A stretch of DNA of 64,000 nt from NCBI GenBank assembly GCA_944323665.1, contig CALUTN010000183.1:2619-66618 (forward strand). Direction: 5' to 3'. Origin of the DNA: Candidatus Gastranaerophilales bacterium (lineage in GTDB: Bacteria; Cyanobacteriota; Vampirovibrionia; Gastranaerophilales; Gastranaerophilaceae). The notes below the pieces were generated by a model. It saw only the letters and a list, made by a program, of their open reading frames with translations. It was not told the DNA's origin and searched no databases. Position 1 is the stretch's first letter. Each line of letters begins with the position of its first letter. Below are positions 1-25,593 of this stretch, piece by piece. Both the position numbers and the translations under genes were made by a program.

Positions 1-133
1 TATATTTCTATCAGAGTCTTCATTTGTCTTACCTTCTGCAGACCATGCAGCCACAAGACCAGGGTAGATAAGGTCTCCCTTAGCTACCCGTAGTGCTTGA
101 TTAGTTAATAATCTTCTTCTAAATGTACTCATT
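1..133 (-). CDS. 5' part of a minus-strand gene that continues beyond the window start (MSTFRRRLLTNQALRVAKGDLIYPG...)
   Basis: ATG at 131-133 on minus strand; open to the window edge. Lies in the late-gene block. Confidence 0.3.
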
Positions 134-1708
134 TATTAAGCCCCTCCCATGACTGCTATATTGTTTACAATAGAAACCTAGTAAGTTTTATTATTGTCTA
201 CTAAACTGTCTCCTATCCACTTCACTGTTTCAGGTAATGTTAGCACTGTAGGAGTATCACCACTAGTGAATTCAAACATATATTCATTATATATATTAGG
301 TATCTCTGAACCCAGAGTGATGTTTAAAGAAGAAACTTCTCCAAATTTATATAATTTATTAGGTTCTATAGTTTTCGTAACTTCTCCCGATTCTGAAGAT
401 ATAGTACTTATAGCATCAGCCTTATTATTAATTACTTCCTATATAGTTTCAACCTCACTATAGTTAGTCCCATCATATCCTCCTACATTAACTACATAAA
501 AGTCTCCATTTTTCATTATCTCTATAGCATTTTTCTATTTAGAACTTTCCCAATTATTGAAATATCGAGTTCCATTACCTATAGAAAATAATGTTTTTTG
601 ATTATCCGCACTTCCAGTATTAGATTTATTAGAAATTCCAAAAGCAGATTCTCCAAAATTAGTAGCAATGGTTTGCCAGTTAAATGCACAAGTATTATCC
701 TAAATGGCTATACATCTACAACCTACTGCTATACTAGCACCATCTACAAAAGTTACAGGTACTGATAGACAGCCCCATCCTACTATAGAGCACTATTCAG
801 CTCTTCCCGATCCTATAGCTAATGACCATTGATCAGCATAACCTCCTACTTCTGCAGAATAATCATTAAAATCAGTATATGGATTTAACGTTTCTGATAC
901 TGTTATAGTTTCATTTTCTGGATCTATAGAAGTTACTACAGCATAGTATTGTTTAGTATCTTCACTATCTTCACTAATCTTATCTTTGCTCTTAATTATT
1001 CTATTTGAAAAATACTATGTAGGACAATTCCTCATCATCCAATAACCAGAACTACCATTAGAAACCACTTTATAAGTAGTACTATTCTTTATACCAGTAA
1101 GATAAAGGTTACTTAATAAATTATTCCCGATTAATATTGAGTTAGATTTTGAAACTCCTATCTATCCTTTTAATCCAGTAGAAAATCCATAACTTTCTTT
1201 ATTACCTATTGATATATACTCGTGATCAGTATCCTCTGATATAAAATCTATTAAATCCTATTTCTAGTTTAAAGCTTCTTGAGTCGCAGTAGAAATAGGT
1301 TTATCTAAATCAGAAGTATTATCTACATTTTCCAATCCAACCTAAGCTTTAGTAACATTATGTGGGTTATTATTATCTAATATATGTGAATTTAACTCAG
1401 ATTTTTTAGAATATGTAGTATTTATCTAGTTTCCATCAGAATCATATTTTGCTTTAAATTCATAGTTTTTACCATGAATTTGCATATTTTTAATTGTATC
1501 CATTAATTTATAATTAAATTCTCTTCTATTACTGCATGAGTATCTATATTATTTTTTACTTCTTCTAACTAATCTTTTGTAGCATAATTTTCTAATACAC
1601 TTTCATCTATTTCTCCAGATGAAATCTATCCTTTTATTACTTTAATTGGAATAGTAGCTTTTCTAAATCCATCCTATAAATATATTACTCCCATAATGTA
1701 TAAATTTA

Positions 1709-4285
1709 TTAACTTTCAGTTTCATCATCTATATTCCATCCAGCCTATCTATAATACTATAAGCTAGTAGAACTGTCTGTAATCTAAGTAGAATAAATAC
1801 TATAATTAGGTGAAGATAACTAAGAAATAGATCCAGTAGCTTTAGGCAATATCATGGTTCTAGCAATAACATTATCAGCTTCTCCTCCTAAATTTCCTAT
1901 TATTTTCATAACTACATCAGAAGTATTAGATAATTTAATGTTTTTAGCATCAAATCCAGATGAAAATAAATTTCCTTTTACAACCTAAATATAGTTACTA
2001 GCAAACATATTATTCATATTTAACTATGTAAAATAAGTTGGATCTAATCCTAATATTAACTAATTGTCTCCAAGTTTTCCTATAAAATTAAACTACTATG
2101 CTACATCTTCTGGTAAAATATGTCCTATAGCAGCCCATCTATTGATTCCTGCAAAAGCATTCTATAGTGATGAGGTAATCTAAGGAATAGAATCTTGTAA
2201 TAACACAAGTGAATAATTTACTACCTATTCATCTCCAAAAGATGAGTCCTATAATACTATATATTCTGAGTTAAAAGCATTATCTAATATACCATAACTA
2301 GTATATGAAGAAGGATAATGGACATATACATTATATGTAGTATTTTCCTATTTCCAACTTTTAACAAGTTGAGGTATTATAGTCTATCCTTTCCATAAAT
2401 TAGTACACTTTACAGTCTTACTATTTTTAAATATATTCTTAGGTATAATTCCATTTAATGCTGTTTTACAAGCTAAAGCAGCCTAAACTCCATAAGACAA
2501 GTCATACTCACTAGTGGTAGAAATATTTGCTTTTAGTCCGTAGAATAAATCTGGAGGAATAATCAATCTATTAGCATCACCATTAATTGATGGGTTAGTA
2601 ATAGATGTTCCTTGTATATTTGCTACATATCCACCTTGTAAGTTCTCTGCATCAGTTACTTCTGTGACCTATTCTAAAGTATGCTATGTATAAACATAAT
2701 TAGGTTCTTCATCTGAAGATATTAAAGTTCTAGTATAATACTCAGTATATTCTTCATCTAAAGAATCTACAACTCTAGCTTTCTTAATGGAATATAAAGC
2801 AGGATTATATTGAAGACATTCTTGAGTCCATTCACAATTTTCAAATAAGAAAGACATGTCATACATTACTTGACTATAATTATAATTATAGAATGTAGCA
2901 GGTTCATAATTATCTTCTTTCTTTATCCATACACTTTCTATAACTTCATTTCTCTTTTTAAACATATCAAATGGAATAGCTACTCCAAACTTACAACCTC
3001 TAAACATTCCCATTACATTTTCCAGTGATGGAATCGTTCTACAGAAATTAGTATCCATCATTAAGTTATTAGAACTAGAAGCTTCTAAAGTAGTTTTGTT
3101 CTAGAAATCATTAAAAGCTAAGGCTGCTTTTTTAATCCTTGAATTTACAGTACTTCCAAAAGTCCATGTTCCAAGAGAACCTACTACAGTTACATTTCTA
3201 AATATAGTATTTATACTAGTTAAGGATTTTGATTTTAAAATCTTCTCACATAGAATACTATAATTTTCAGCAGAAATATATTTAGCACAAGCGTTACATT
3301 TAGTATTATAATGTAAATTATAATCCATTTTAAATATCTCACTCTGATTAACTAACTTATCCCAATTATACATATTAAAATAATCAGCTGTCTAATCAGT
3401 TAGAGTTGATTTATTCCAAGATTCACTTATTGAGATAACATTAGGAAGCTGTTTACATAAGTTTTCATATCCTTTGTATTTACTTTGTTCAGGACATACA
3501 TAACTCATACTAGATAACTTAACCCAAGCAGCTGTAAAAGTATTAGTCCAATCTAATGTATACTAACTAGTAGTCTATATATATCTTAAACTAATTAATT
3601 TTGTAGGAGATTGTCCACCAGGGTTTAAGAACTCTGACATCTTTATATCACTATCAGAAGATAGTATTTCTCCAGAACTGTCTACAAAAGTAATATGAGT
3701 TACTCCTCCATTATAAGATCCAAAAGGTAAATAAGTAACTTTAGTTATAGTTCCTTGAAATAAATCTATCGGAACATACAAAATACTGAGAGAATCTTTA
3801 GTACAAAAAGCCTAATCATAATTACATCCTTCAGTAGATCCTAACTACATAAAGTTCTTATTAATAGCATTTACTCCTGTATTCTGAGGATTATAAAATA
3901 AGTAAGATGCATTAGTAACTTTAGATAATTTACCAAAATTTGGGTAAGAACTTTCTGATATACTAGTTTTCAAATCCTCTAAGCTAAATACTGCAAGAGT
4001 ACAATATGCAAACATATACGAAATATTAGTAATAGAGTTTTCTATTGGTATAATATTATCAATAATATGTTTTACTTCTTTCCAAGTATTATTATAAAGT
4101 TTATAGTATTTATCTTCATCTATAACATAACATAACATTCCTGACTTTCTTCTCTTGGTTGGAATATTATCTCTATCAGAGACTGACTATACACTATAAA
4201 CACCTCCTCTAACATTATTAGAATCAATTAATGCAAAGTCCTAATTATTCTTTTGTACAATTTCACTAATTAATTCAATTGCCAT
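1709..4285 (-). CDS. Tail fibre / receptor-binding-like protein with BspA-type leucine-rich repeats, about 858 aa, TAG-recoded with about 25 in-frame TAG codons
   Basis: Track fragments 2684..3061, 3101..3373, 3575..3781 and 3845..4138 share one frame. Hand scan of that frame from 4285 down to 1709 finds TAG but no TAA or TGA until the TAA at 1709-1711. The first TAA upstream is at 4298. Repeats of the type SYMFAYCTLAVFS and VMGMFRGCKFG resemble BspA-like LRRs. Confidence 0.5.
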
Positions 4286-5242
4286 ATTATTGTATAGTTA
4301 TTGTAGTTCTACCTAAATTATCATTATCACTTCTATATACTCTGTAACGAGTAAACGTCTATGTATTATATCTATCTATTACTACATTATCATCTAACAA
4401 AGTAAATCCTCCAGAGAAACCATTTACTACAAACTCAGCTTCTCCATATGAATATGGAATACAAATAAATATATAATTTCCTACAGAATTAGAATCTACT
4501 GTAATTGTAGTTTTTCTAGAACTCTATAATAAACGTGATAATGATATTATCTAGGACTCATTAATAGTCTCCTAATTTAAACTTCCATAATATATTCCTG
4601 GATAAAATCTAAGAGAAGCAGAAGATTTCTATACTGTATAACCATCATTTACTTCTAATTCTTTAGTAATAGTATTCTTAAATTCTCCCTATATTGTAAT
4701 CGTTCGTAAAGAGTTATCTATTAATTCCCCATCAAATTTTTGATATTTAATGTTAGATACATTATATGTCCAGTTATACACTATAGAAGTTACTAACTCT
4801 CCTAGTTCTTTTATATTCGGATTACATATAAAAGTAATAGTTAGATCTTTTCTTAAAATATAATCTAAAGCATCCTAAAGTGTTTTAATATTTTCATATT
4901 CTGGATTATGATATATTATTTGAGATATAGCAGAATCTCCATCTAATATTTCTTTATCTACTTTATTATTCTATAGAGCTATGAGTATATCATATAAATC
5001 TTTTTGATTCTATAAATAACCATTAATAGATCCCCAATTTATTTCAGTAGAAGAAATTCCAAGATTTTCTCTAGCTTTTGCTTTTTCAGATTCTGTTTTA
5101 AACTCAGATAGATAATTCTTTTTTAATAGGGCATCATTATTGCATTCTACTATATTAACAGTAACATTATCACATTCATGTTTAATATCTTCTTCATTTT
5201 TTGGAAACAATAGATTATCAGATCTGGTGTCGCCTATTAAAT

Positions 5243-6028
5243 TCATAATAAATTACGATTTAAATAAAATTCTATAATAAAATTTTTGTTTTCTAAATAA
5301 GAATATATTTCTAATAAACTTATTTCTTCTAAGATTAATTCATAGTTTATATTCTTTCCTTTAGACAAATTATCTATTAAAATGTTATAATCATCTATAA
5401 TTTTTCTTTTTAAGTCATTAATTACACCCACAACTATTTATTTTATCAGTTACATATGATTTACAGAATCCTCCACATCTATTTATTTTTTCTAATATTC
5501 TCTAAGATTCTTTCATCTAATTAAATTCTACATTATATTTTATAATATTTAGAGTCATCCATAAAATATCTCTTTTAAATGTAAGATCAGTGTCTAAATT
5601 ATTACATCTATATTAACTTCTGTTAAATTATTATTGATATAATGATATATATTAATTCCATCTGTAACATATATATTAATAGGATATAAAGTAAGATTAT
5701 CCTCTTTTTCTAGTTCTTTATTTAACCAATCTAAAGTTGGGAGTATAAAATGATGTATAGTATAATATCCGTCTTTTTTTAATTTATACTCTATTTCATC
5801 TATTTCAGAAGTATGATCATTAATTATAGTATCTTCTATATTAGACTACTAAATAGAATTATACTAAATAATATTTATGGTCATAGTTTCACTATATTTA
5901 AATTTATTATTCTAATTATGAATTAGAGTATCTTCTATATCTTCTGGTATATATTCATTAGAATCCTGAGTTAAATCCTAGATTTTAATTATGTCTCCTT
6001 TTCCACAAATTTCAACTATGGGTTTCAT
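5243..6028 (-). CDS. TAG-recoded late gene (MKPIVEICGKGDIIKIQDLTQDSNEYIPEDIEDT...); 3' end not resolved and may extend further down
   Basis: ATG at 6026-6028 overlaps the stop of the upstream gene (TAATG). In-frame TAG codons are present. Track fragment 5243..5431 is in the same frame. Confidence 0.3.
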
Positions 6029-7002
6029 TATAATTGTCTTATTTTATCATTATATGGATTTCCATCTCTTAGTTGAGATAATTCTATATCAGTTCTTTTT
6101 TCTTCTATATCTAATTGTCTATCTCTGTAAGTTCTATCAGTCTAAGCTTTAAACCAATTTACCTAATATTCAAGATTTATTTTTTGCTACTCTAACTACA
6201 TTTTATATTCATCTAATTGCTTTATTTTTTGTTCAGCTTTAGAAAGATTCTACTATAACTCCTATGCCTATTGGGAAGTTTCCTCTAATTTAACTTGTAA
6301 TTGCTAAAGTTGATTATTTTCTTCTTTTTGTATCTATAAAGCCTTTTTTACTTTATATTTTAAATCAGTCATACTTTTGGCAGTTAAAGCTTCTAGTATT
6401 ATATCTGGAGTAACCTAATTACTTTTAATGAATTCAGGAATTATAGATTTTATTGTCTACATATCTTCCATAACCTATGTACTAGATATTATATGTATGT
6501 CATAATCAGTTAAAGTAAAATATTCAGGTAAAGCAGTAAATATTTGCTAATACTTATCTCCTAATATTATTGTACCAGTTAAACCTTTTTTATAAGTGAT
6601 TTTTGCTTGATTTAAACTATCTAATAATATTTCACAAGAGACTAAATCCATCTACTAAAAATAATGTTTAGTAACTATAAATGAATTGGCTACTCCCTAT
6701 TTTATGTTTGTTACTGCATCTCTCTACTCTATTCCATTTAGTCTTTCTCTAAATACTCCAGTAATAGAAGATGTAGTCTATTCCACTGACTATATTGCTA
6801 ATTCTATAGCCTATATAGCCTAAGCTTTTAAAGTATCGTCAAAGCCATTAAAGATAGTATTTAATGGAGCGTTTCCATTATCATTTCTACCTTCTTGAGA
6901 ACTATCTACCCACATTATACCTGTTTTCTTATAGGCTAACCATTTTTCTACTCTCTCAGGCCATTTTACTCCTAAATTTGTCGGTAATAAAGACATATCC
7001 AT
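6028..7002 (-). CDS. TAG-recoded late (structural?) protein, about 324 aa, Gln-rich if TAG=Q
   Basis: Frame of track ORF 6820..7002 followed by hand. There are 20+ in-frame TAGs and the first TAA is at 6028-6030. Q-rich context such as KAQAIQAIELAIQSVEQ. Confidence 0.45.
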
Positions 7003-7063
7003 TATTACTCCAGAAGTTCCACTATTAGCTACTAAAGAATCTCTATAATAATTTAAAAGATCA

Positions 7064-8014
7064 TATCGTATTATCTTCCATCTGAGTCGTTAATTCAGAA
7101 GCGTTCTCTAATGAACTGCTCTAGTTTTCACTAGAAGTTGAGACTATATCATATTTTATATTTTCTAATATTGTTGGTAACAATTCGTTAGTAAATGTTT
7201 CAGTAGAAGAATTATATTCCCATTTATTAGGTTTATATAAGTTAGGTCTAATAATTTTTTTTAATTTAGTTTCAAACTCTTTACATTGTAAAGCATCTTC
7301 AAAAGTATGAATAAATATAACTTCTATATTATATCCTAATGCTTTATATTCTCTAAATCTTCTTACCTTACCATTATCAGTAATATAAGATACTCCTAAT
7401 TTATAAAAACTTTCATTTTCATTAAAAAGTTTTATTAAATAAAAAGTATTAGATTTTTCCCAAAATTTATTACATTCTGGACATCCAGATCCTAAAAATA
7501 TAGAATCAGAATCTACAGATTGTTTACCATGAATAGGACATATTAGAGTAACTCTCCCTTTATGTCTATCTGTGGAATCTACTTCAAAATCGTACTTATT
7601 ATTATATAAAAATAATAATTGATTTTTAAAATATTCTTTTCTATTTACTGCAGTTCTTATAGTAGGTATATGTCCATGAATTAAATTGTCAGGATTTACA
7701 CTAACTAATCCATATTTAGTATTAAATAACATTTTTTGTTTCATTGTTACATATTCTGAAGCAGGAGTAACTAATTCAGCTATTTTAGGCTATTCGATTT
7801 TAAGCATTCCCATAAAATATTCTGTTTTATTTAAAGCCATTTTAATAGTAGGTTTACCTCTAAAAATAGCTCCTGCTTTTGGAATACTCAATATTCCATA
7901 TTTATCTTCTACTAAAATAGGAAAATTTAAACCTTTAAATTTACTAACTACTTTTAATTCACCTTTATATTCTTCGGTTACTTTCTTTTTAAATTCTTCT
8001 TCGTTAAGTTTCAT
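7064..8014 (-). CDS. T5orf172 / GIY-YIG-superfamily-like putative homing endonuclease, with one in-frame TAG at 7790 joining track ORFs 7790..8014 and 7121..7744
   Basis: The two track ORFs are in the same frame, separated only by TAG plus 15 codons. C-terminal pattern FYLIKL..FYKLGVS...RRFREYKALGYNIEVIFIHTF. The N-terminal half contains a duplicated segment (PTIKMALNKTEYF and PTIRTAVNRKEYF). The end is either the TAG at 7121 or the TGA at 7061. Confidence 0.45.
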
Positions 8015-8245
8015 AACTACTTTTATTTTTAATTAAACAATAAAATTATATAAAATTCCCGCACTTCGAACCACTTGGTTCTACATAATAGTCGTTGAGC
8101 CTTCAATTAAGCTTGGCTGCTGATTGTCCAATCTTATCCTTGTTCATCATTTCATTTACATGAAACTATAGATAAGCTCTAAGGAGTTTCCAGCAATTCA
8201 CGGGATTTAAACAGGACCGATATATTAATCCTGTAGATGAGCACA

Positions 8246-9364
8246 TTTAAGTATTAAAGAATAGGGCTATTGAGACCTATTTAAAAAATAAACTCCATTA
8301 ATTGATAATGAACAATAATTTGGATTATCTTTAGATCTTATTACATTTTTATCTTCTCCTCTAAGTATAAACATATCTTCCCCTATTCTAATAGTACTGT
8401 ATCTTCTCATTATGAAATTATCATCAGTTTCTAACCACTCAATTTCATAAACTGGTATTAATTGAAATCTTGTAGAACTATATTCATTATCTGGATATCC
8501 AGGAATAGTCTCATTAGTTTCTTTTCCATCATTTACAGTAATGCATGAATCAGCTGTAAAAACCCTTTGATATATAGCAGCCCCATCACTATCATACCAA
8601 TCATCTTTTAATTGCTATAAGTCTTTTTTAGATAGTTCTTTTCCATATTTTGCTAATATTTGATTTTTTGTTAACCAATGTCTTACCACAGATCTATATG
8701 AATTTTTAACATATGGAGATTCTGGATTTCTATCTATAAAAGTGTTTAATGGATTTAATACTTCTATCTCTATATTAGAACCACTAGAAGACTATTTCAC
8801 TTTAAAGAAAGTATATCCTGTTATTAATAAATCAGTTAAGAGCTACCTTAGTTTTGTTATTAAATCTGTTTCTCTGGATTGCAATATATACTAAACAATA
8901 TACTATGCTGCTATTTCAAATTGGGATATAAATGATTGATCTATTTCCTGTACTATTTTATCTAGCTAATCCTTTATTGTTTTATCTGTTATATCTTTTC
9001 CATCTATAAATCTTAAAATAGAATTGTTTAAATGAGCTTTTAAAAAATTAACAACTCCTTCTAATATTTTTAATTGCTTCTCTCTGGTAATACTAGATAT
9101 AGTTTCAGAATCTTTACAAGATATTTTTGGAAGTATCGGAGTTCCTAAATATTCTCCAACTAATGCATCAATATGTTTTTTTAATAAAGGTGTAAATTCT
9201 ACTGATGTTGGACTTCCTATTCCAAAATTCTCTTCTAAATATTTATACTATTCTGGATCTCTTTTTCCATTATAATAATTGTAAGCTTTTTGAAGTTCCC
9301 ATTTATTGTATACTAATTCAGAGATAGCTTTATTAGTTTTATCAATAAGTTCTTTGTCTGTCAT
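8246..9364 (-). CDS. TAG-recoded protein downstream of terminase, tentatively portal-like; N-terminus MTDKELIDKTNKAISELVYNKWELQKAYNYYNGKRD...
   Basis: ATG at 9362-9364. Frame followed by hand through at least 10 TAG codons to the TAA at 8246-8248. Position after TerL and the YNYYNGK motif suggest portal, but at about 372 aa it is short for a portal protein. Confidence 0.35.
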
Positions 9365-9584
9365 TACATAAATTTATATATTCTGGAGGAAGTTTAGTTG
9401 CACCAAAGTATTTAACTCTTTGAAGTTTTCTTTTTCTTAATTCCTCTTTAATAAAGGGTAGAAATTCTTCATCTGGTAAATCAGCAATAATAACCAATGG
9501 CATTTCTGATCTGTCAAAATTAAACGATACTTTATAACCAATCGGATTTAATGGTAATATTTCAATACCTCCTATATATTCCAT
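9342..9584 (-). CDS. Hypothetical 80-aa protein (no TAG)
   Basis: Track ORF. Overlaps the TerL 3' end and the start of the portal-like gene. Confidence 0.3.
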   Translation of the reverse strand: MEYIGGIEILPLNPIGYKVSFNFDRSEMPLVIIADLPDEEFLPFIKEELRKRKLQRVKYFGATKLPPEYINLCNDRQRTY

Positions 9585-11919
9585 CTAATATAGTTCTCTA
9601 ATGTAATCTAGGATCACTTGTTTCAATTCCGTAGTTGTCATTATAATTTTCTCTAGATATATTAATTTGTATATACTATTTCTTCGGTATAACACCATGT
9701 CTTATATAACCTTTTTCATCTCTATAATATCCAAAATCCTAAAATTCTTCTTGTTCCTTTATTACAGTGGTGGGCTGTCTTCCAGATAGTTCTTGGTCAG
9801 CTAATTCTGTCATACCCATTGCTGCTATAATATCAAACTTACCTTTATTTTCATCATTATAACCAGTAAGCTAATCTAGCATTTCTTCAAACCATATAGT
9901 ATGACAATAATCTTCTACAAAATTAGCAGTTAAGTCAGTATGTAGTTCTATTATAAGTTTAGTAGCAGGAGTTCCATACTATTTAGTAGTACCGTTTTTA
10001 ATATCAGTTAGTGTAGCTCTTGGACGTTTCATAAAATATTGTAATCCTTTATTTTCTTTGGCCCAAGTAACCATACCCATACGAGTAGCTTCTATATTTA
10101 TTTTGCAATTATAGTATCTAGCTAAACACATAGCTATTTTATATGCTTCTCTAATATTTCCTGGTCTATCCTTATACATAGCAACATACTATGGATCATT
10201 AAGTCCAAATGCTCTCTTTTTAATTGTTATACAAAATTCAGAAGGATCTCTAGTTTCTTTAGAAGTCTGATTAGCACCAATATCAATTCCGTCTATTCCA
10301 GCTACATATAAATCATTCATTTCTTTGTATACTGGAATATTAAATTCCTCACCTTTTTCCTCTGCTTCCTATTTTAATTTAAGCATTTTTTCCTAATATA
10401 ATTCTGACCAGATTGGATGCTCCAGTATTTTAACTTTTCCATTTTGGTTCGGAATCCATTTAAATCCTGATATATTTTCTAAAGAATGCTAATTATTTTT
10501 ATAGTAATAATCTATTATTCCAGATTCTGGTCTAGGACCTTGTTTATGAAGTCTAATAATTGCTAACTAATTAGCAATATTAATTTTATTAAATTTATTT
10601 ACTCCTTCAAGATTAAAGGCTTCCTCAGCATTCCAGCATCTTTCGGCGCACTTCTTTAGATATTCTTCTGGTACTGCTAATAAATTATCTCTTTCTTCCT
10701 AAAGAAATTTTTTATATTCATCAATATTACAAACCCCTCTATTATCCATAAATTCTGGATTTAGTGACTATAGAAAATAAGGAATAAAAAAACCACTTTC
10801 TATTGTAGTCCCATCCTAAGTCCAATTATGTCTAAAAGGTAGTATCTTAAATGATCTGGGATTATAATATATTTTTTTAAGACCTTCTAATGGTGCTCCC
10901 ATATCTCCTCCTGTTCCACCAAATAGCATTGTACCTCTAGGAACACCCTGTACTTCACATAATTCCTATCCTTGTACAACTGCAGTAGTAAGTCCTGGCC
11001 ATGAACCTGCTTCATCATATATTAATAAATCAACACGATCACCACGAATATTGGATGGTTTAGAACCGTTAATAGCTAAAACTTCTGATTGAAATCCTAT
11101 ATCTTCAAACTAACCATCTACCTTTATCTATTTTCCAGACTTTTTTCTTAAATCTTGATCTATAAGTCTTCTTTTAAAGAATCCTCCTCCAGTACAAGTA
11201 TTTAAAAAAGTTAAAGCATGATCAAATTTATTGAATGTACCTTTTAAGAAAGTGTCATTGAAGCAAGTAATCATTACTCTACTTTTTCTAATTACTGAAT
11301 ACATTCTTGCAGATAAAGAAGCATTTATTTCAGAAAAACCAATTGAACGAGCTTTCATTAAAGCAGCATGTTTATGAAGAACCCTTGCCATCTATAAATA
11401 ATGAAAGAACATGTAATGAGAAGCAAAAAATATAGGAAAGTCATCATTAGTTCCAGAACCAGAAGCCTAGTTAGCATCAATAGTAGGTAACTAATAAAAG
11501 TTTAAGAAAAAATAGTTATCTCCAGTTATAGTATAACCATTAACTGTCATTCCATATTTACATCTTCTATATTGCTCTTTCCAAAATTCGTTATATCTTT
11601 TACTATCTTTTAAGTAGGGGCAATACTTTCCAGTTTTCTTATATATTTCTCTAGTTTCAGTAAACCAATTAGGATTAAAATCTAATCCATGGGTTTTATC
11701 AATTGGTTTATATCCAGTTAATTCGTATGATAATGTAGGATCAAATACATCTATTTTTTCGTCTTTTTTTACATCCCAATAGTCTGGATCTTTAGATCTT
11801 TCTTCTCTTAATTTCTATATTACTTCTCTTGTTTCCTTTATATCTTTTTCGTGTTCTTCTTTCTTTATCTAATCTATTATTTCTTGTACTTCAGATACTA
11901 TTTTCTTTTTTCTTCCCAT
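9562..11919 (-). CDS. terL: Terminase large subunit, TAG-recoded (about 785 aa; more than 10 in-frame TAG)
   Basis: Hand translation joins track ORFs 11128..11391 and 9979..10179 plus the intervening segments in one frame. Motifs include ...YGMTVNGYTITGDNYFF..., ...NTCTGGGFFKRRLIDQD... and ...VDLLIYDEAGSWPGLTTAVVQG(Q)ELCEVQGVPRGTMLFGGTGGDMGAPLEG... The gene ends with TGA at 9562-9564 and starts with the ATG at 11917-11919. Confidence 0.6.
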
Positions 11920-11921
11920 AA

Positions 11922-12483
11922 TTAAAAATCTCCTGGGTCAAATCCATCTTCTCCTCCACCTCTTATAGTAGACTGTTCAGTAAGTTCTTTTTTAACTTCA
12001 TTTTCTAAAGTAACCAATTCCTCATGTACTTTATGTAATTGAGCCATTTCTTTCATTACTTTTTCAGCCTAAAAAATAGGTTTACCGTTATTATCTCTCT
12101 CATTTAAATCTACTATAGTATCAAAATAATCTATAAACTAATCTGCAGCTCTTTTAGCTGCTTCTAATAATTTTATAGATTTATTGGAATCCTATAAAGA
12201 TCTATATTTTCTACAAGCTTCTCTAAATATAGGATCATTAAATTCCTATTCAGTTAAACCGGAATCACTTAAAGCTTCTTCATGCCTTTCTTGTTCTGTA
12301 TATTGATTATAAGGACTCTTCCAATCTATAGCTAGATAAATATAAGATAACTCTCTTTCTAATCTTTTCTTAGATTTAGTATTATCTCTCTATAGAAGAT
12401 TTTTGAATTCTTTAACCAGTAAAATTTCCGGTTCATTAATTTCTAGGCTTTTAGTCAAAGAATTAAAATTAAAGATATTCATA
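11922..12483 (-). CDS. Terminase small-subunit-like protein, TAG-recoded (about 186 aa)
   Basis: ATG at 12481-12483. Several in-frame TAGs. The TAA stop is 5 nt upstream of the TerL ATG. Assigned by position; no motif recognised. Confidence 0.35.
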
Positions 12484-12502
12484 TTAGTTATTTTCTAATA
12501 TT

Positions 12503-12900
12503 TACTTTTTTAAATTTTTAGATTTCTTCTATTCTCTATCCTATTTAAATTTCTAAACTATATTTAACTTTTTACCTTCTTTAGCTGATTTATCTTTTGC
12601 TATCTATTTACATACTTTACATACTCTTCCTCCTACTTCAAAATAGGATACTTCCTGTCCTTCTGGACAAATTCCTTTAAGCTTTTTATAATATGTAAGT
12701 TTAGATCCCAACTATGCTTTTACGCTATTACCTTGCATCATTTGCATAAACTGCTAATATTTAGCTTTTATCCCTTCTTCTCCTAGCTATTCTGCATATG
12801 ATTGTAAATCTTGCTCTGATTGAATCTATACACCTTGAGCAGCAGCATCCTAAACTAAAAACTGTAAAAATGCTTTCTATAATTCTTCCTAATTATTCAT
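12503..12900 (-). CDS. Small Gln-rich TAG-recoded protein (MNNQEELQKAFLQFLVQDAAAQGVQIQSEQDLQSYAEQLG... if TAG=Q)
   Basis: Hand translation. At least 9 in-frame TAGs in Q-rich context. TAA at 12503-12505. Confidence 0.4.
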
Positions 12901-12931
12901 AGTTCCTCCCTATTGTTTTTTCTCTTTCATA

Positions 12932-13147
12932 TCATTCATTTACTAAAATTAAGTCCTTACTATTAAAAACTGCTTCTTGCATTAATCCAGAAGTAGTAAA
13001 CCATCTACATCTCAATCCTTTAAAATTAGGTGAATCTTTAAATAAAGAATTTTCTTTTCTAATTACTAACATAACGGGGGATTGCATTACCCTATTCTAT
13101 CTTAGAGTAACACAATCACCTGGTTTAAAGTATAATTTTTCTTCCAT
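12932..13147 (-). CDS. DUF2158 (YodC)-like small protein with one in-frame TAG
   Basis: MEEKLYFKPGDCVTLR(TAG)NRVMQSPVMLVI...CRWFTTSGLMQEAVFNSKDLILVNE. The pattern resembles the YodC family PGDVV.LKSGGP.MTV...C.WF. TGA stop. Confidence 0.4.
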
Positions 13148-13157
13148 CTTATTTTTT

Positions 13158-13748
13158 CTATTGAAGGTTATTTTTTCTATCTGTTAATTTTTCATTAACT
13201 ACAGCCATTATCCTATTCTCATTAACTACTACAAATCCCAATTTATAAAAAGGAACCATACATTCACTAGCTATAGTATAAAATACTACATCACCTGGTT
13301 TTAAGAATTCACATTTATGACCAACTTCTATAACTGTACCTACTTTTATATATTGTTGTTCTTCCTCTATTTCACCAGTTTCATGTGATTTATATGTTGG
13401 AGTATATCCTCCTAAATCAGTTATAATTCCACTACTAGTAACTTTTACTTTTTGAAAAGGATTTTGATCAAAAGGTTTTATTAAAGCATAGTTAAACATT
13501 GGCATTATTTCTAATCCGTTTATATCTTCTGATAAATCTTTTGCAAAATCTTCCAAAGCTTTATTATGTTTTTCAAATTTATCATTAAATTCATCTATTT
13601 TAGTATTAAACTGCATAGCCTTTTCTCTTTGTAAAGTTTTATCTGCAGTTTCACCATTTATAATAAAGTGTTTACCAGTTCCCTCAATTCCAGTTGTAGC
13701 TAATGCTAGTTTTTCATTACTGCTTAATTCTGTTCTTAATTCTTCCAT
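13158..13748 (-). CDS. Protein with a C-terminal GroES/Cpn10-like domain and an N-terminal coiled coil (standard code)
   Basis: Track ORF. C-terminal pattern IKPFDQ...VKVTSSGIITD...IKVGTVIEVG...LKPGDVVFY...ENRIMAVV resembles GroES. Confidence 0.45.
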   Translation of the reverse strand: MEELRTELSSNEKLALATTGIEGTGKHFIINGETADKTLQREKAMQFNTKIDEFNDKFEKHNKALEDFAKDLSEDINGLEIMPMFNYALIKPFDQNPFQKVKVTSSGIITDLGGYTPTYKSHETGEIEEEQQYIKVGTVIEVGHKCEFLKPGDVVFYTIASECMVPFYKLGFVVVNENRIMAVVNEKLTDRKNNLQ

Positions 13749-15258: not shown

Positions 15259-15930
15259 ATGGATAATTTAAAATTAATTGGATGTCAAATTTTAAAAAAT
15301 GGCTCTGGAATTCATATTAAAAAAGAAAACAGAGGCAAATTTACTGCTGCTGCTAAAAGAGCAGGTAAATCAGTACAAGAATATGCTAGATCAGTATTAA
15401 ATAATCCAAATGCCACTCCACTACAAAAAAAGAGGGCTAATTTTGCTCGGAATAGTAAGAAATGGAAACATCAAGAGGGAGGAATACTATAGGCAGCAAC
15501 TGGATTAATTCCTATATATGGAACTTATTTAGATTATAAACAATTTGAAGATAATCCATCATTAAAAAATTTTGGTAATATGGCTTTAAGTGGAATTGGA
15601 GACATTCTATAGTTAACTGGTTTAGGTTATGGACTTGGAACAGCAATTAAGGGACTTAAAGCAGCAAATACTGCTAGAAAAACAGTGAAAACTATACAAG
15701 CTACAAGGATTGCTACCAGATTAGCTAATCAAAAGAAAATGTTAGAAAGGGGAGATATAGGGAAAAAAGCCTTTTAGGGTTGGGTATAGTCTGGAAAGAA
15801 TTTAAAAAGAATTAATGAGAAAGTAGATAAAGCAAATCAATAGAGAAATAGAGCTACTAAGATTTTTGGAATAAGTTTAATTGAACCTTCAATAGAGGGC
15901 TTCTAGATATATAATAATCTTAAAAATTAA
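15259..15930 (+). CDS. TAG-recoded protein (223 aa; at least 5 in-frame TAG) of unknown function, possibly virion-associated
   Basis: Track ORF 15259..15492 ends at a TAG. Hand read-through stays open to the TAA at 15928-15930. Confidence 0.45.
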
Positions 15931-15933: not shown

Positions 15934-16584
15934 ATGCCTTTTAAATCAACTTTGGTAAATTGTAAGTAGTGTGGGAAAGAGTTGCCTCACAATAGAACTT
16001 ATTTTCGCAGAATAGTTACTAACAAAAAAGAACATTATTCAGAAATATGTAAAGAATGTGAAAATGAAAATAAGATAAACTAGGAATGGAAAGATGGAAA
16101 ACTTAGATGTCATATATGTGGATAGTATAAAAATGAAGATTGTTTTCCTATCAGTGATCATTATATATATAGAAATTATAGAGATAGTAGATGTACAAAA
16201 TGTAAAGGAATACAAAATAAGAAAGCAAAAGACAAGTACTCTGATGAAAAAAGATTATAGTATGTATTAAATAGTAGACTATTGGCTGCTAAGAATAGAG
16301 CTTTTTCAAAAGATATTGAATTTCAACTTTCCCTTTAGGATTTGATCAAATTGTGGAATAAGCAGAGCGGAAAATGTGCAATTTCTGGAATACCTATGAC
16401 ATATGAATTAAATTAGGGAAGAGTATTTTCTAATGTAAGTATAGATTAGATTATTCCCGGAAGAGGTTATATTCCAGAAAATATTTAGCTTGTTTGTATG
16501 GCTGTTAATTAGATTAAATCTGATTTTGATATGTAGACAGTTTTGTATATATGTAAACAAATTATTAATAATTATGACACATAA
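15934..16584 (+). CDS. HNH endonuclease with zinc ribbons, TAG-recoded (216 aa; 9 in-frame TAG)
   Basis: Hand translation gives ...CAISGIPMTYELN(TAG)GRVFSNVSID(TAG)IIPGRGYIPENI(TAG)LVCMAVN(TAG)IKSDF..., an HNH-type D-x-IIP...N..L.C...N..K core. TAA stop. Confidence 0.55.
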
Positions 16585-16715: not shown

Positions 16716-17216
16716 ATGGAAAATTTGGGTTTATTAAAACTAATTAAATTATTATTTAATTCAAAACCTTCTGAATGTAAACAGATTGAATTATTATCTT
16801 CCAAATATTTACCATTTAAAAATTTTAAATTTATGATGTGGTGTGGTAAAATAATATATAGAAAAGATAAAGAAAATATTGTTTTGAGATATTTAAATAC
16901 CTTTTATGGGGAGAAAAGTAAAAGACATGAATAGTTCCACATAAAATAGGCTAAAGTACATGGAAAAAATTCATGGATTTTTTATTATTTAATGTATATA
17001 AAAGAGTGGCTTAAAGGTATACCATTTTTAAAACCTTTTTATCATGCTTATTATACTATACCTTTTGAAGTAGAGGCTTATGCTTTAGAAAATAATTAGA
17101 ATAGTTTAGATAATTATGATTAGTCTAAATTGAAAAATTTATATACATTAAAAGATAGAAGAAAAACTTATTTAGATAATAAAGATAACTGGAAAAATTA
17201 TGTTAAATAGTTATGA
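16716..17216 (+). CDS. TAG-recoded hypothetical protein (166 aa; 5 in-frame TAG)
   Basis: Track ORF 16716..16934 ends at a TAG. Read-through gives a clean ORF to the TGA at 17214-17216. Confidence 0.45.
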
Positions 17217-17440
17217 ACGATTTTATTAAGTAGATATTTAATTCTCATTCTGGAGTTAGTAGTAAGAGAATATGTGGGGTTATAGGATGGCTAATATGTA
17301 TGGGAGTTTTAATTTATTGTACTATTAATTCTATATAGGCACCCATTATTATGGATACTGTTTTATGGTGCTGTATAGGTTTATTAGGAATAGATTCTGT
17401 AACAGGTATATGGAAAAAATTTGATAAACCAAATAAGTAA
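17213..17440 (+). CDS. Small membrane protein, holin-like, with 2 in-frame TAG
   Basis: MNDFIK(TAG)IFNSHSGVSSKRICGVIGWLICMGVLIYCTINSI(TAG)APIIMDTVLWCCIGLLGIDSVTGIWKKFDKPNK. One or two transmembrane segments. Confidence 0.4.
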
Positions 17441-17444
17441 GATT

Positions 17445-17690
17445 ATGAAAAATATATATAATCAAATTCTTAATTTTATTAATTAGAAAGATAAAATTTA
17501 TCATATATGTGCTAATATTATATTGATATTAATAGGAAATATTATTAATATAGTATTTGGAGTAGTATTAGCTATATTGGCATCTTTAGGAAAAGAAATA
17601 TATGATATGAAAAATAGTTCAGGATTTAGCAAATAGGATTTAGTAGCAGATTTAATAGGAATTATAATTGGAATATTATTAGTGTTATGA
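17445..17690 (+). CDS. Small membrane protein, holin-like, with 2 in-frame TAG
   Basis: MKNIYNQILNFIN(TAG)KDKIYHICANIILILIGNIINIVFGVVLAILASLGKEIYDMKNSSGFSK(TAG)DLVADLIGIIIGILLVL. Two transmembrane segments. Confidence 0.4.
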
Positions 17691-17859: not shown

Positions 17860-18126
17860 TTGGTATTATATAATATGAAAAGAAATAAATATTATAAAGA
17901 TAACAAAGAAATTCTAGAACATAATAAAACTCAATGTTGTATATGTGGAGAATCTGCTAAATGCTGTTTAGAATTTCATCATATAAAAGATAAATTATTT
18001 AATATATCTCAATCTGTAAGTCATCTGCCTACTAGCTTATTTATAAAAGAGATTAATAAATGTATTTGTGTTTGTAAAAATTGTCACAGTAAAATTCATA
18101 ATAATATAATCAAATATGAAAAATAA
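17860..18126 (+). CDS. HNH endonuclease (88 aa, standard code)
   Basis: CCICGES...LEFHHIKDK...CICVCKNCHSKIH. Confidence 0.55.
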   Translation: MVLYNMKRNKYYKDNKEILEHNKTQCCICGESAKCCLEFHHIKDKLFNISQSVSHLPTSLFIKEINKCICVCKNCHSKIHNNIIKYEK

Positions 18127-18577: not shown

Positions 18578-18928
18578 TTATTTAATATGTATATCAGTAA
18601 TTCGTTCATAATCTTTATAGTCTTTAATGTAAGAATTTTCTAAATTTGGGTATATACTTGTAATAGTATATCCAGTTTTTGGATTTTTAAAATAATATAA
18701 TTTTATCTCGTTTTCATTTTTCTCAACTTCTGGGTTTATGACTTTATTCCAATGGTTATATCTTTCATCTAATTTTGACATATTATTATCAAATTCCCAT
18801 TCTTCTAATATTTTTATTGGTTGAGATTCTTTCTTTAATTTTTTCTCTATGTTATTAGTTTTACATAGAGTATCATTTTTTAGATAAATTGCTGCTTTCA
18901 TTTTAAAATAATTTTGTAGTCGGGGCAC
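18578..18928 (-). CDS. Hypothetical protein (116 aa). Its 5' end overlaps the 3' end of the suppressor tRNA by about 9 nt.
   Basis: Track ORF with TAA stop. Confidence 0.35.
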   Translation of the reverse strand: MPRLQNYFKMKAAIYLKNDTLCKTNNIEKKLKKESQPIKILEEWEFDNNMSKLDERYNHWNKVINPEVEKNENEIKLYYFKNPKTGYTITSIYPNLENSYIKDYKDYERITDIHIK

Positions 18929-18993
18929 TGGGACTCGAACCCAGAACTTCTGATTTAGAGTCAGACCCGTTGACCAATTACGACCATACCCCA
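18920..18993 (-). tRNA. Amber suppressor tRNA, anticodon CUA (reads UAG), with a tRNA-Gln-like body
   Basis: Hand fold of the minus-strand sequence TGGGGTATGG...TCTGA-CTCTAAA-TCAGA...CTGGG-TTCGAGT-CCCAG-TGCCCCG-A. The acceptor has 7 bp (2 G-U). The T-arm is perfect. The anticodon loop is C-T-CTA-A-A. The 5' UGGGGUAU and the weak 1-72 pair resemble E. coli tRNA-Gln and its supE derivative. Confidence 0.75.
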
Positions 18994-19138: not shown

Positions 19139-19486
19139 TCATTCACTTATTAAACTATTTAAATATTCTATTTTATCCATAACTGCTGAATATAAAGTAT
19201 CTTTAAATAACTATATTCCTAAATCTATGGTATCTGAATTATTTATATAATTCTCAATTTCTCTTATTTTATCTCTTCCTAATCTTTCACAAACTTCTAC
19301 AAATAAATTATCATCTATTTTTTCTAAAAATTTCGTAAAATTTTCTAGTTTATTATCTTCTTGATACTGTATTTCTATATTTAGAGAATTATCTTTTAAA
19401 TTAACTTTTATTTTTAATCCGTCTTTATTATATTCTCCGTTTTTTATAACAGTTTTAATAAGCTATTCTAACTATTTAGTTTCCAT
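19139..19486 (-). CDS. TAG-recoded hypothetical protein (about 115 aa; 3 in-frame TAG)
   Basis: Hand translation METK(TAG)LE(TAG)LIKTVIKNGEYNKDGLKIKVNL...DLGI(TAG)LFKDTLYSAVMDKIEYLNSLISE. TGA stop. Confidence 0.4.
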
Positions 19487-22716: not shown

Positions 22717-22801
22717 ACGAGTATAAACAGGCATTAGGTCTAGTGCGTCAAGTGGGGAGAAATCCTCACTTGGGTTGTATTAATTATTAAACTAAATAAA
22801 A

Positions 22802-25493: not shown

Positions 25494-25593
25494 TTTGCAC
25501 AATAATAGTTATATTTATATGTGCAGCAGCTATAGAATAATTAACATTTATTAACTATTAAATTATAACTGCTGTACATATAGTTGTAAACAA

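Follow-up and report, generated by a model that had tools for sequence, protein, structure and literature searches.

The window analysed here, a stretch of 64,000 nucleotides, is part of a ~182-kb gut crAss-like phage. [quoted passage not shown] The TAG-bearing late genes serve the virion, packaging and, probably, lysis, and their TAG codons are probably read by the phage's own suppressor tRNA. Amber recoding in this phage is real, was rightly read in an earlier sequence-only reading, and is already published biology.

Coding coverage and distribution of TAG

In order to compare genetic codes, coding coverage was calculated from stop-to-stop ORFs of at least 100 aa. For positions 1-12,900 the standard code gives a coverage of 18%; the value rises to 94% when TAG is allowed as sense and to 23% when TGA is, as expected from the earlier claim that TAG is sense in the late block. 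At positions 27,001-64,000, where TGA as sense is not relevant, the corresponding values are 77% (standard code) and 79% (TAG sense). Each late gene is one frame that ends in TAA or TGA. The codon tally has no in-frame TAA or TGA in any late gene and there are no frameshifts in the late-gene frames, so that TAG alone breaks them and the restoration of ORFs is TAG-specific. TGA is a genuine stop because it ends 17 of the 66 genes tallied (late genes and those at 27-64 kb) and because reading it as sense restores nothing.

The late genes contain 122 in-frame TAG codons among 3,925, compared to 2 among the 9,947 codons of 52 genes at 27-64 kb (Fisher p = 1e-64). About 59% of late-gene glutamines are written as TAG. 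This share is uneven among the late genes, from 2/7 of the Gln codons in the intron endonuclease to 6/7 in the gene at 5555..6028. The TAG-rich set consists of the terminase, portal and fibre genes, further virion genes, several homing endonucleases, and a small cluster that codes for hydrophobic membrane-like proteins and a peptidase-like protein. The claim that early genes have no TAG at all is nearly correct at 27-64 kb; the two codons found there, in 37339..37761 and 61460..62491, are 4-6 codons ahead of TAA or TGA and may be real stops, and 13149..13748 has a single TAG at codon 197 of 199. These counts support the claim that TAG is used as sense only in the late/structural block and in a few genes scattered elsewhere.

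The block at 27001..64000 (+) is compatible with the standard code and contains replication, nucleotide/NAD metabolism and anti-defence genes as well as tRNAs, with Pfam matches to ResIII/DEAD helicase, DnaB_C, Toprim_2, AAA_24, NAMPT, Band_7, Tad2-like and Glucosaminidase. Its replication, metabolism and anti-defence genes are legible to a standard-code host ribosome. The glucosaminidase at 41359..41880, inside this TAG-free block, has an N-terminal hydrophobic (membrane-like) segment and is a possible lysin.

Late genes and the split portal gene

The large terminase gene, TerL, at 9562..11919 (-) had been described as one continuous 785-codon frame with more than ten TAGs; it is such a frame, with 21 TAG and a TGA end. 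Since TAA and TGA together have a frequency of 6.2% per position on the late-gene (minus) strand, the probability that a frame of this length stays open by chance is P ~1e-22. Fragments of TerL, and likewise of each other late gene, all fall in one frame. Residues 91-712 of the TAG-sense TerL align with positions 77-726 of 758 of phrog_6681 (terminase large subunit; E = 1e-59), which amounts to a nearly full-length alignment, and the protein is 42-49% identical to standard-code TerLs across 661-780 aa. The TerL of one relative (P0009) contains an intein. Next to TerL, 11922..12482 (-; 186 codons, 5 TAG) matches phrog_16390 and has a homologue adjoining TerL in all relatives; a further late gene is 12502..12939 (-; 145 codons, 12 TAG).

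The tail-fibre-like gene at 136..1503 (-; 455 codons, 11 TAG, TAA end) is matched by PHROG tail-fibre families at residues 47-92 of its product (best E = 7e-14). The frame at 1709..4285 (-) is open as claimed, with 858 codons and 26 TAG (26 of its 40 Gln codons). Its description as BspA-like has no support from Pfam, where no family was matched with TAG entered either as X or as Q; the only match is phrog_23630 (unknown function), at the N-terminus. Two other late genes are 4287..5246 (-; 319 codons, 9 TAG), also called in independent contigs (L178-L181), and 5555..6028 (-; 157 codons, 6 TAG, 6/7 Gln codons), whose homologue has 247 aa in sister contigs.

The ORF at 6028..7002 (-; 324 codons, 22 TAG) is a TAG-bearing frame as proposed, but instead of being a gene by itself it forms the 3' portal exon. 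Exon 1 at 8228..9364 (-), within the ORF 8225..9364 (379 codons), has 8 TAG, ends in ...KCAHLQD and matches phrog_6547 portal (E = 4e-23). Exon 2 at 6028..7068 (-), with the 22 TAG, begins with RYDLLNYYRD... and aligns with residues 426-749 of the portal protein of relatives, which is uninterrupted and 724-726 aa long. The spliced 725-aa portal matches crAss001 portal gp20 (PDB 7qog_A; E = 2.3e-12) with a single segment (residues 323-674) that runs across the exon junction. The exons are separated by a group I intron at 7069..8227 (-; boundaries approximate). Rfam Intron_gpI (RF00028) matches at 8020..8236 (-) with 40.6 bits (E = 1.7e-8), which falls short of the gathering score (50), and a 3' fragment matches at 7121..7152. 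The pieces 7790..8014 and 7121..7744, which had been joined, do form one ORF; the gene is the intron-encoded homing endonuclease at 7061..8014 (-; 317 codons, 2 TAG; phrog_681 endonuclease, E = 7e-24). The portal insert is absent from relatives. Judged by the matches of TerL, portal and Endonuclease_7 (see below), the restored late proteins are real.

Scattered genes with TAG

Outside the late block, all genes that had been listed as TAG-bearing are so. The gene at 15259..15930 (+; 223 codons) has 6 TAG, and 15934..16584 (+; 216 codons), an endonuclease VII/HNH-like gene found in some sister contigs only, has 10 (phrog_1035 endonuclease VII, E = 3e-24). A caveat had been raised that a TAG in the latter might stand at a His position; its standard-code ortholog in MT835470 has Gln at 3/3 conserved TAG positions (SIDQ, NIQLVC, VNQLK), which settles the matter. 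The gene at 16716..17216 (+; 166 codons, 5 TAG, 5/6 Gln codons) matches phrog_15610 'protease' (E = 2e-10) and is possibly a member of a lysis cassette. The stretch 17213..17690 is TAG-bearing but comprises two ORFs in different frames, 17213..17440 (+; 75 codons, 2 TAG) and 17445..17690 (+; 81 codons, 2 TAG), both coding for small hydrophobic proteins with membrane-like segments. The product of the first had no match in the family search and may be holin-like; the second has weak PHROG matches. The remaining genes are 19139..19486 (-; 115 codons, 3 TAG), which adjoins the suppressor tRNA, and the endonuclease VII gene at 26113..26535 (+; 140 codons, 3 TAG; Pfam Endonuclease_7, E = 5.8e-25), with the motif DHDH-TAG-TGKVRGLLC.

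Identity of the inserted amino acid

In order to identify the amino acid, window TAG positions were compared to three standard-code relatives (L001, which is MT835470, L045 and L048), which have no TAG in TerL and a standard-code coverage of 93-94%. Glutamine is found at 50 of the 146 aligned positions; its background is 3.6%, and in the same comparison ordinary window Q is conserved in 35%. With an empirical substitution table, the likelihood across these positions is highest for Q, with a lead of 51.8 lnL units on E and of 92.9 on K. In the recoded clade (~45 relatives), TAG interchanges with CAA/CAG. Q is the majority non-TAG residue in 47 of 75 window-TAG columns, and 22% of window CAA/CAG columns are TAG-majority, compared to at most 2% for any other residue. 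At invariant TerL positions only TAG, CAA and CAG alternate; at variable positions TAG is also aligned with E and K. TAG positions in the alignments thus fall on Gln and not on gaps, and the comparisons support TAG = Gln (code 15), as had been proposed by analogy with crAss-like and Lak phages. The Gln-rich context of TAG, cited earlier in its favour, is weak evidence and is not needed.

Suppressor tRNA

A tRNA with anticodon CUA is located at 18919..18993 (-; ARAGORN; Rfam tRNA 52.5 bits). Its body is of the Gln type, its end pair is U1·G72 and its discriminator base is A73. ARAGORN labels it 'Pyl' (tRNA-Pyl) because of the anticodon and nothing else. The description of this tRNA as Gln-like is borne out by its first 11 nt, which are common to 116 cellular tRNAs, 115 of them tRNA-Gln; overall identity to tRNA-Gln with the same 5' end is 72-76%. 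All of the cellular tRNA-Gln recovered (115/115) have U1-A72 and G73, in contrast to the window tRNA. In E. coli, GlnRS uses G73 as an identity element. Because U1·G72 and A73 differ from tRNA-Gln, we infer Gln charging from the codon evidence and not from the tRNA alone. A BLAST search of the window tRNA against phage records gave only partial tRNA-Lys matches.

Most recoded relatives have a tRNA(CUA) at the equivalent position upstream of TerL, and most relatives keep one or two CUA tRNAs beside the late block. A second suppressor family (family B) in the relatives is 94% identical to a tRNA-Gln(CUG) allele that occupies the same site in L047, with differences that include anticodon position 36.

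Proposed mechanism and alternative explanations

In the proposed mechanism the host glutamine-charging system would load the tRNA(CUA) with Gln, and the charged tRNA would compete with release factor 1 at UAG codons and insert Gln there. Early genes would be translated at once, and full-length late protein would appear only after build-up of the suppressor tRNA. Since late protein would need accumulated suppressor, recoding would gate late and lysis functions at the level of translation, as in the model proposed by Borges et al. Such a gate may also interfere with the termination of host genes at TAG. Two points are at odds with the timing model, namely the candidate lysin in the TAG-free block and the intron endonuclease with only 2 TAG. 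A reading in which TAG is Gln without a timing switch appears less likely but has a substantial case; suppression would then operate from the beginning of infection, and the late/early bias would stem from drift after suppressor gain or from an effect against the host or against superinfection. The TAG share of Gln codons is uneven, TAG seldom serves as a stop even in the standard-code L001 (1/34), and an anti-defence reading was put forward by Yutin et al. (2021, PMC7886860). Against these stand the very sharp late/early separation, the fact that it follows functional modules, and the same pattern in unrelated recoded phage lineages (Borges 2021, bioRxiv 10.1101/2021.08.26.457843).

Read-through might instead depend on a host that reads TAG, carries a suppressor or has no RF1 activity, the phage tRNA(CUA) being accessory. 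Recoding and detectable phage suppressors do agree imperfectly (PMC7886860), and no CUA tRNA was found in the fetched flanks of recoded L002, L005, L027, L028 and L035, although these loci are short or cover ±10 kb only. We consider this quite improbable, as the avoidance of TAG by 52 early genes, save the two codons near gene ends, would be expected only with a host for which TAG is a stop; most relatives have CUA tRNAs beside the late block, and standard-code hosts are predicted for such phages by Borges et al. (bioRxiv 10.1101/2021.08.26.457843). Even less probable is a sense TAG that encodes Glu, Lys, Tyr, Trp, Ser, Leu or pyrrolysine. The 'Pyl' label, E and K at variable positions and the tRNA-Lys matches could be cited for it. 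The same holds for discriminator A73 and for U35, which agree with the identity rules for Lys. By the identity rules for bacterial tRNAs, the short variable arm is incompatible with the Ser, Leu and Tyr types. The lnL differences, the TAG/CAA/CAG alternation at conserved positions, the anticodon-only basis of 'Pyl', the tRNA-Gln 5' end and mass spectrometry of a congener (PMC9523058) all argue for Gln. The field of short fragments under the standard code might also suggest decay (of a prophage or into pseudogenes) or errors of sequencing or assembly, to which we assign next to no weight. TAG is the sole interrupter, and ~45 diverged relatives have intact frames despite differing TAG positions. 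The window architecture recurs at 99.7-100% nucleotide identity in at least 4 independent 182-187 kb metagenome assemblies, a conservation that refutes decay or artefact.

Comparison with known systems

Recoding of TAG to Gln with a proposed timing gate can be compared to several known systems. TGA->Trp (code 4) phages, namely Agate, Jade and some Zeta-group crAss-like phages (PMC7886860; bioRxiv 10.1101/2021.08.26.457843), similarly combine a reassigned stop in late genes with a phage suppressor tRNA, but codon and amino acid differ, TGA being a stop in the window. Some Lak and Agate phages encode RF2, whereas no release factor or aaRS was found among the genes of the 64-kb window (of the ~182-kb genome). 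The E. coli supE (glnV44) amber suppressor is a tRNA-Gln with anticodon CUA that inserts Gln at UAG. The same CUG->CUA change also separates family B from the L047 tRNA-Gln(CUG). Unlike the phage system, supE suppresses weakly, is encoded on the chromosome of a standard-code cell and belongs to no recoded genome, and the window tRNA has U1·G72 and A73 in place of U1-A72 and G73.

The study of Borges et al. is said to have appeared later in Nat Microbiol 2022. Its phages belong to other lineages and have other genome sizes, but share with the window phage in-frame TAG concentrated in structural and lysis genes, standard-code replication genes, a suppressor tRNA(CUA) and, at low GC, a TAG already rare as stop (bioRxiv 10.1101/2021.08.26.457843). 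Zeta-group crAss-like phages of the human gut (145-192 kb, deep-branching TerL) have TAG or TGA reassigned mostly in late genes, suppressor tRNAs of which some are tRNA-Gln converted by anticodon change, and dense group I introns and inteins (Yutin et al. 2021, Nat Commun, PMC7886860). Every one of these traits is seen in the window, a likeness by traits and not by placement among Zeta genomes.

Among the closest parallels is the 191-kb crAss-like phage L2_026_000M1_scaffold_35, in which TAG->Gln was determined by LC-MS/MS (Peters et al. 2022, Nat Commun, PMC9523058). Fifteen of its peptides (Suppl. Data 3) match relatives L006, L007, L016 and L017, 13 exactly and 2 with one mismatch, and the TerL of these relatives is ~80% identical to that of the window. 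The matched recoded-stop peptides include GDSPETGDDDFIFVTqK and qVSDLSGSSEAVNNIIIK, with q encoded by TAG in the relatives' DNA; two more peptides match the window gene 42026..44032 with 2-3 mismatches. The scaffold is another species-level genome, and the relatives that match it lack the portal intron and have suppressor tRNAs from other sequence families (59-71% identity to that of the window), with no more than 71% for the tRNA of the relative validated by mass spectrometry. It nevertheless belongs to the clade of the window phage, is similar in genome size and likewise combines a TAG->Gln late block with a standard-code early block and a phage suppressor tRNA.

Coding coverage and the recoded codon

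The GC content of the window is 28.4%. Coding coverage was measured with stop-to-stop ORFs no shorter than 100 aa. Positions 1-12,900 were covered to 18% under the standard code and to 94% with TAG as sense, and the corresponding values for 27,001-64,000 were 77% and 79%. When TAG is read as sense, the minus strand of 1-12,939 consists of ten contiguous genes, each in a single frame and all ending in TAA or TGA. They are 136..1503 (455 codons, 11 TAG), 1709..4285 (858 codons, 26 TAG), 4287..5246 (319 codons, 9 TAG), 5555..6028 (157 codons, 6 TAG), 6028..7002 (324 codons, 22 TAG), 7061..8014 (317 codons, 2 TAG), 8225..9364 (379 codons, 8 TAG), the large terminase TerL at 9562..11919 (785 codons, 21 TAG), 11922..12482 (186 codons, 5 TAG) and 12502..12939 (145 codons, 12 TAG). 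TAA and TGA together occur at 6.2% per position on that strand, so that the probability of a 785-codon open frame by chance is about 1e-22. The sequence-only reading had proposed TAG as a sense codon in this late block, and the rise in coverage together with the TAA or TGA ends of all ten genes bears this out. The other two stop codons were considered as the recoded codon and rejected. With TGA as sense the ORFs were not regained (23% coverage of 1-12,900), and with TAA as sense ORFs were inflated in every frame, adding up in 12.9-64 kb to more than the sequence itself. Code 15 (TAG read as Gln) entails that long ORFs and a normal coding density return with TAG, and only TAG, as sense, as they do here.

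The scattered TAG-containing genes claimed earlier were found as well, at 15259..15930, 15934..16584, 16716..17216, 19139..19486(-) and 26113..26535. A further one, 17213..17690, does contain TAG but is not a single gene; it comprises two ORFs in different frames, 17213..17440 and 17445..17690. Across the late genes there are 122 TAGs in 3,925 codons, which is 59% of Gln codons if TAG is Gln, Gln then amounting to 5.25%. In the 52 genes of 27-64 kb there are 2 in 9,947 codons (Fisher p = 1e-64 versus late genes). Recoded codons are therefore concentrated in late and structural genes, including the possible lysis genes, and the early genes can be read with the standard code, again as described for code 15. 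Annotation of the contig with table 11 wrecks the late genes; translation of TAG as Gln recovers TerL, portal, fibres and endonucleases.

Identities of the recoded genes

Translated with TAG as sense, TerL matches a PHROG large-terminase profile (residues 91-712 versus profile positions 77-726 of 758, E = 1e-59); a search of TerL against PDB gave no match. PHROG matches were also obtained for 8225..9364 (portal, E = 4e-23), 136..1503 (tail fibre), 7061..8014 (endonuclease) and 15934..16584 (endonuclease VII/HNH, E = 3e-24), and 26113..26535 is a Pfam Endonuclease_7 protein (E = 5.8e-25). The label "BspA-like" that had been given to 1709..4285 is without Pfam support: no leucine-rich-repeat or BspA family was matched up to E = 1, with TAG translated as X or as Q.

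An insert of some 1.16 kb, from about 8227 to about 7069, splits the portal gene, 6028..9364(-). It combines a group I intron core (RF00028, 40.6 bits, E = 1.7e-8, under the gathering score) with the 317-codon endonuclease ORF 7061..8014. The exon junction reads ...CAHLQD|RYDLLNYY.... The portal is uninterrupted in relatives (724-726 aa), and four sister contigs have the same insert. Homing-endonuclease-like genes number six in the window (7061..8014, 15934..16584, 17875..18126, 26113..26535, 27158..27667 and 62460..63017), of the types endonuclease, HNH, endonuclease VII and NUMOD1.

The stretch 16716..17690(+) is a compact cluster of a 166-aa protein with a 'protease' PHROG match followed by the two small ORFs 17213..17440 and 17445..17690, which are rich in hydrophobic (membrane-like) segments and have 2 TAGs each. 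Most Gln codons in the cluster are TAG (5 of 6 in the first gene). PHROG and Pfam searches with the small ORFs around the tRNA and with the hydrophobic proteins gave nothing, and for this reason we can only infer that the cluster may be a recoded lysis cassette, a role that it would fit. A candidate lysin, a glucosaminidase-domain protein with an N-terminal hydrophobic segment (41359..41880(+), E = 1.5e-15), sits in the TAG-free block, a location that does not fit preferential recoding of lysis genes.

Relatives and sister contigs

Megablast of positions 1-25,000 against GenBank phages gave no match, and relatives were reached via the TerL protein. The TerL search gave MT835470 and MT835539 (43-48% identity), GenBank 'Bacteriophage sp.' entries that are unannotated and derive from human faeces, and beyond them annotated sequences of uncultured crAss-like phages, cr1_1 among them (26-33% identity, E about 1e-29). 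IMG/VR gave 49 loci on contigs of mostly 100-192 kb. All relatives with TerL at least 70% identical have between 12 and 31 TAGs in frame in that gene. By contrast, L001 (MT835470), L045 and L048, the three farthest removed at 43-50% identity, have 0 TAG in TerL and a standard-code coding coverage of 93-94%. These related standard-code genomes, MT835470 and the two IMG/VR contigs, can be used for studying the onset of recoding. The code of another relative, L050 (IMGVR_UViG_3300013830_000002; TerL 55% identical), is unclear or mixed, with coverage going from 0.67 to 0.86 with TAG as sense and from 0.67 to 0.83 with TGA as sense.

ENA metagenome contigs of 182,196, 184,764 and 186,586 bp share 99.7-100% identity with the window. 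These contigs come from different samples and repeat the same gene order, so that the arrangement is no artefact of assembly. Their public gene calls include a 785-aa TerL and were thus already made with TAG as sense. The segment 15259..16584 is missing from sister contigs L179 and L180, which suggests that it is mobile. Within 5246..5600 a late gene is polymorphic by deletion or truncation: sister contigs L179-L181 have about 120 additional bases at window position 5594-5600 and a 247-aa gene, and in the window and sister contig L178 the ORF is shortened and a non-coding gap comes after it. TerL itself varies in length among relatives. It is enlarged to 1,131 aa in the relative P0009 by an intein with Hint, Hom_end and LAGLIDADG_3 domains, none of which is present in the window TerL, and is longer in the relatives L047 and L049 (TerL 10001..13522).

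The amino acid inserted at TAG

We compared TAG positions of nine window genes with the standard-code relatives. Q is aligned with 50 of 146 positions against a background of 3.6% Q, and the self-conservation of ordinary window Gln is nearly equal at 35%. With an empirical substitution table derived from those alignments, Gln is preferred over Glu by 51.8 lnL units, over Asn by 82.5 and over Lys by 92.9. Nine genes, each represented by 27-46 distinct sequences, were also tallied by column. In 47 of the 75 window-TAG columns the majority residue other than TAG is Q; conversely, columns in which the window has CAA or CAG are TAG-majority in 22%, versus at most 2% for every other residue. At the codon level, clade-conserved TerL positions interchange solely among TAG, CAA and CAG, and positions such as 143, 270, 451 and 577 are CAA or CAG in the standard-code relatives. 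An initial count of Q at 14 of 21 TerL positions in database homologues was discarded as circular, because those proteins had been called with TAG translated; it was replaced by the codon-level comparison and by relatives demonstrably on the standard code.

The earlier proposal that TAG is Gln agrees with the share of Q in the alignments, the likelihood ranking and the interchange with CAA and CAG. It had been accompanied by a caveat that one TAG of the HNH gene 15934..16584 is located where many HNH families have His. This is resolved by the standard-code ortholog, which has Gln at all 3 conserved TAG sites (SIDQ, NIQLVC and VNQLK). These codon comparisons show that in the late genes TAG is a sense codon on a par with CAA and CAG.

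A direct anchor exists for a congener. LC-MS/MS has shown TAG to be read as Gln in 191-kb and 94-kb crAss-like phages (Peters et al. 2022, PMC9523058). We searched the peptides of the 191-kb phage (Suppl. Data 3) in six-frame translations of the window and all fetched loci, with TAG rendered as q. Fifteen peptides of proteins 8, 10 and 14 match the relatives L006, L007, L016 and L017, 13 of them exactly and two with one mismatch. Among them are the recoded-stop peptides GDSPETGDDDFIFVTqK and qVSDLSGSSEAVNNIIIK, in which q is TAG in the relatives' DNA. Since its peptides match relatives of the window, the 191-kb phage belongs to the same clade, and the mass-spectrometric readout suggested at the outset is already available for a congener. 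Two further peptides match the window gene 42026..44032 with 2-3 mismatches. This plus-strand gene (668 aa, phrog_1735, E = 8e-238) is TAG-free and located in the 'early' block; its homologue was detected in virion-enriched samples and called tail-related (Peters et al., PMC9523058). Not every virion-associated protein is recoded.

The suppressor tRNA

A phage-encoded suppressor tRNA with anticodon CUA, a further feature of code 15, is located at 18919..18993(-) (ARAGORN; Rfam tRNA, 52.5 bits). The 'Pyl' label assigned by ARAGORN mirrors the anticodon alone. The tRNA is of type I, with U1·G72, G2-C71, G3-C70, G10, A37 and discriminator A73. We scanned the genomes of 185,579 species for stretches sharing the first 11 nt and the GGTTCGA T-loop, with the anticodon left free. 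Among the matches listed (the first 120 stretches) there are at least 116 tRNAs, of which 115 are tRNA-Gln (109 CUG and 6 UUG) and one is another CUA tRNA. The listed cellular tRNAs are mostly from Actinomycetota and 72-76% identical overall to the window tRNA. The body is of Gln type, having U1 with a weak first pair, G2-C71, G3-C70, G10 and a short variable arm. The acceptor end is atypical, because the cellular tRNA-Gln among the matches listed all end in ...CCCCAG with U1-A72 and G73, and the window tRNA has U1·G72 and A73 in their place. A73 is also present in the other phage suppressor families. The description of the cognate tRNA as Gln-like accordingly holds for the body that it shares with cellular tRNA-Gln, the acceptor end being atypical. 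BLAST against phage records returned solely 38-nt partial matches to T5-like tRNA-Lys, uninformative for tRNA identity, and BLAST against E. coli genomes found nothing.

In most recoded relatives a CUA tRNA is present at the corresponding site upstream of TerL, and many have a second one on the opposite strand. The second suppressor family has 94% identity with the tRNA-Gln(CUG) allele that occupies its place in the relative L047, from which it differs at anticodon position 36, in a compensated acceptor pair and at one T-stem base. Alleles of this second-family gene with anticodon UUA occur in nine to eleven relatives. The tRNAs of the suppressor locus fall into at least three sequence families in the clade, and the anticodon of one tRNA-Gln gene switches between CUG, CUA and UUA. 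On the alleles compared, the locus is evolutionarily fluid within the clade. The CUG-to-CUA history of the second family corresponds to the tRNA-Gln-to-suppressor route of Yutin et al. (PMC7886860).

Among close relatives the same tRNA gene, with CUA, UUA (ochre type) or CUG, lies about 8-10 kb upstream of TerL (loci L007, L008, L012, L014, L019, L039, L042, L046 and L051, and L047 at 116..186). The CUG allele of L047 is an ordinary tRNA-Gln. Carriers of UUA end most genes in TAA, and the UUA-carrying loci have no in-frame TAA in TerL. The window has 13 tRNA genes including the suppressor, the others being within 24428..44958(+). Eleven were called by ARAGORN (Gln-UUG, Arg-UCU, Ile-UAU, Phe, Lys, Ser, Gly, Cys, Met, Asn and Leu-UAG), and one, at 40246..40318 with an apparent UGC anticodon, by Rfam alone.

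TAG in the early and middle genes

The 27-64 kb block encodes a ResIII/DEAD helicase, a DnaB-like helicase, a Toprim primase, an AAA_24 ATPase, NAMPT, a phosphoribosyltransferase, a Band_7 protein, a Tad2-like protein and a glucosaminidase. Its two TAGs, in 37339..37761 and 61460..62491, are 4-6 codons before TAA or TGA and may be genuine terminators. Few genes stop at TAG, namely 3 of 43 early-block ORFs and 1 of 34 in the standard-code relative L001, a rarity in line with the evolutionary path that Borges et al. propose. We regard it as unlikely, on balance, that TAG has two meanings in one genome, namely terminator in a few early and middle genes and Gln in late genes. The candidates for TAG-terminated genes are 61460..62470 (primase), 37339..37746, 22420..22716 (first TAG at 22714-22716, just within the 5' end of a Pistol ribozyme) and 24185..24349. 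If such dual use were true, build-up of the suppressor would lead to short C-terminal extensions to a back-up TAA or TGA, which follows after 4-6 codons in the two early genes and farther downstream in the two middle genes.

The Pistol self-cleaving ribozyme (22707..22779(+), 64 bits) and a RAGATH-14 RNA (21071..21249(+), 159 bits), both over their Rfam gathering scores, sit between 20.3 and 23.7 kb, where genes are sparse for about 3.4 kb. In the early block, 49371..52669(+) encodes NAMPT (NAPRTase and NAMPT_N domains), then a 138-aa ORF, a phosphoribosyltransferase-like protein and a Tad2-like (Thoeris anti-defence 2) protein; this TAG-free segment looks like an NAD-salvage and anti-defence island. 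The gene 31013..32989(+) is also TAG-free, and its 658-aa product has an N-terminal hydrophobic segment, an SPFH/Band_7 domain (E = 5e-18) and a long low-complexity region rich in Ala, Glu, Lys and Gln.

Proposed mechanism and comparison with known systems

The phage encodes a Gln-type tRNA(CUA), and its early genes are readable with the standard code. No release factor or aminoacyl-tRNA synthetase (RF2, aaRS) was found among the scanned proteins of the 64-kb window, the genome being about 182 kb. Host enzymes would charge the tRNA(CUA) with Gln, as the codon-substitution evidence suggests. The tRNA would then compete with RF1, and full-length late proteins would be produced only after it has accumulated.

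The recoding is real, and the sequence-only reading of it is correct apart from minor annotation errors. It is also already known, since bioinformatic work has described it for the phage group and proteomics has proven it in a close relative. The window is one more well-resolved member of a crAss-like clade of about 185 kb with proteomics-proven code 15, and knowledge of phage stop-codon reassignment is unchanged by it. Residual novelty lies in a possible dual TAG use in a few early genes and in the turnover of suppressor alleles, including the unusual acceptor end.

Membership among crAss-like phages is indicated by homologous TerL and portal, the spliced portal matching crAss001 gp20 (PDB 7qog, E = 2.3e-12). 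Within them, branches of the Zeta group use TAG recoding, TGA recoding or the standard code (Yutin et al. 2021, PMC7886860). The size and origin of that group (145-192 kb, human gut) are paralleled by the sister contigs (182-187 kb) and the IMG/VR relatives (178-192 kb), with human gut being based on the closest GenBank records, from human faeces. The group I intron in the portal and the intein in TerL of the relative P0009 are Zeta-group features too. Should the phage have the group's split giant RNA polymerase block, its place would be beyond the 64 kb of the window. Likened feature by feature to the Zeta group (Yutin 2021), the window shares the size of about 182 kb, the gut metagenome origin, a deep-branching crAss-like TerL, portal homology, an intron in a core gene and late-only recoding, and its relatives share TerL inteins; on these shared features it would match the group. 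Borges et al. (10.1101/2021.08.26.457843) read recoding of late and lysis genes alongside a standard-code replication module as a translational gate on late functions, and the window likewise has recoded late genes and a replication module in the standard code.
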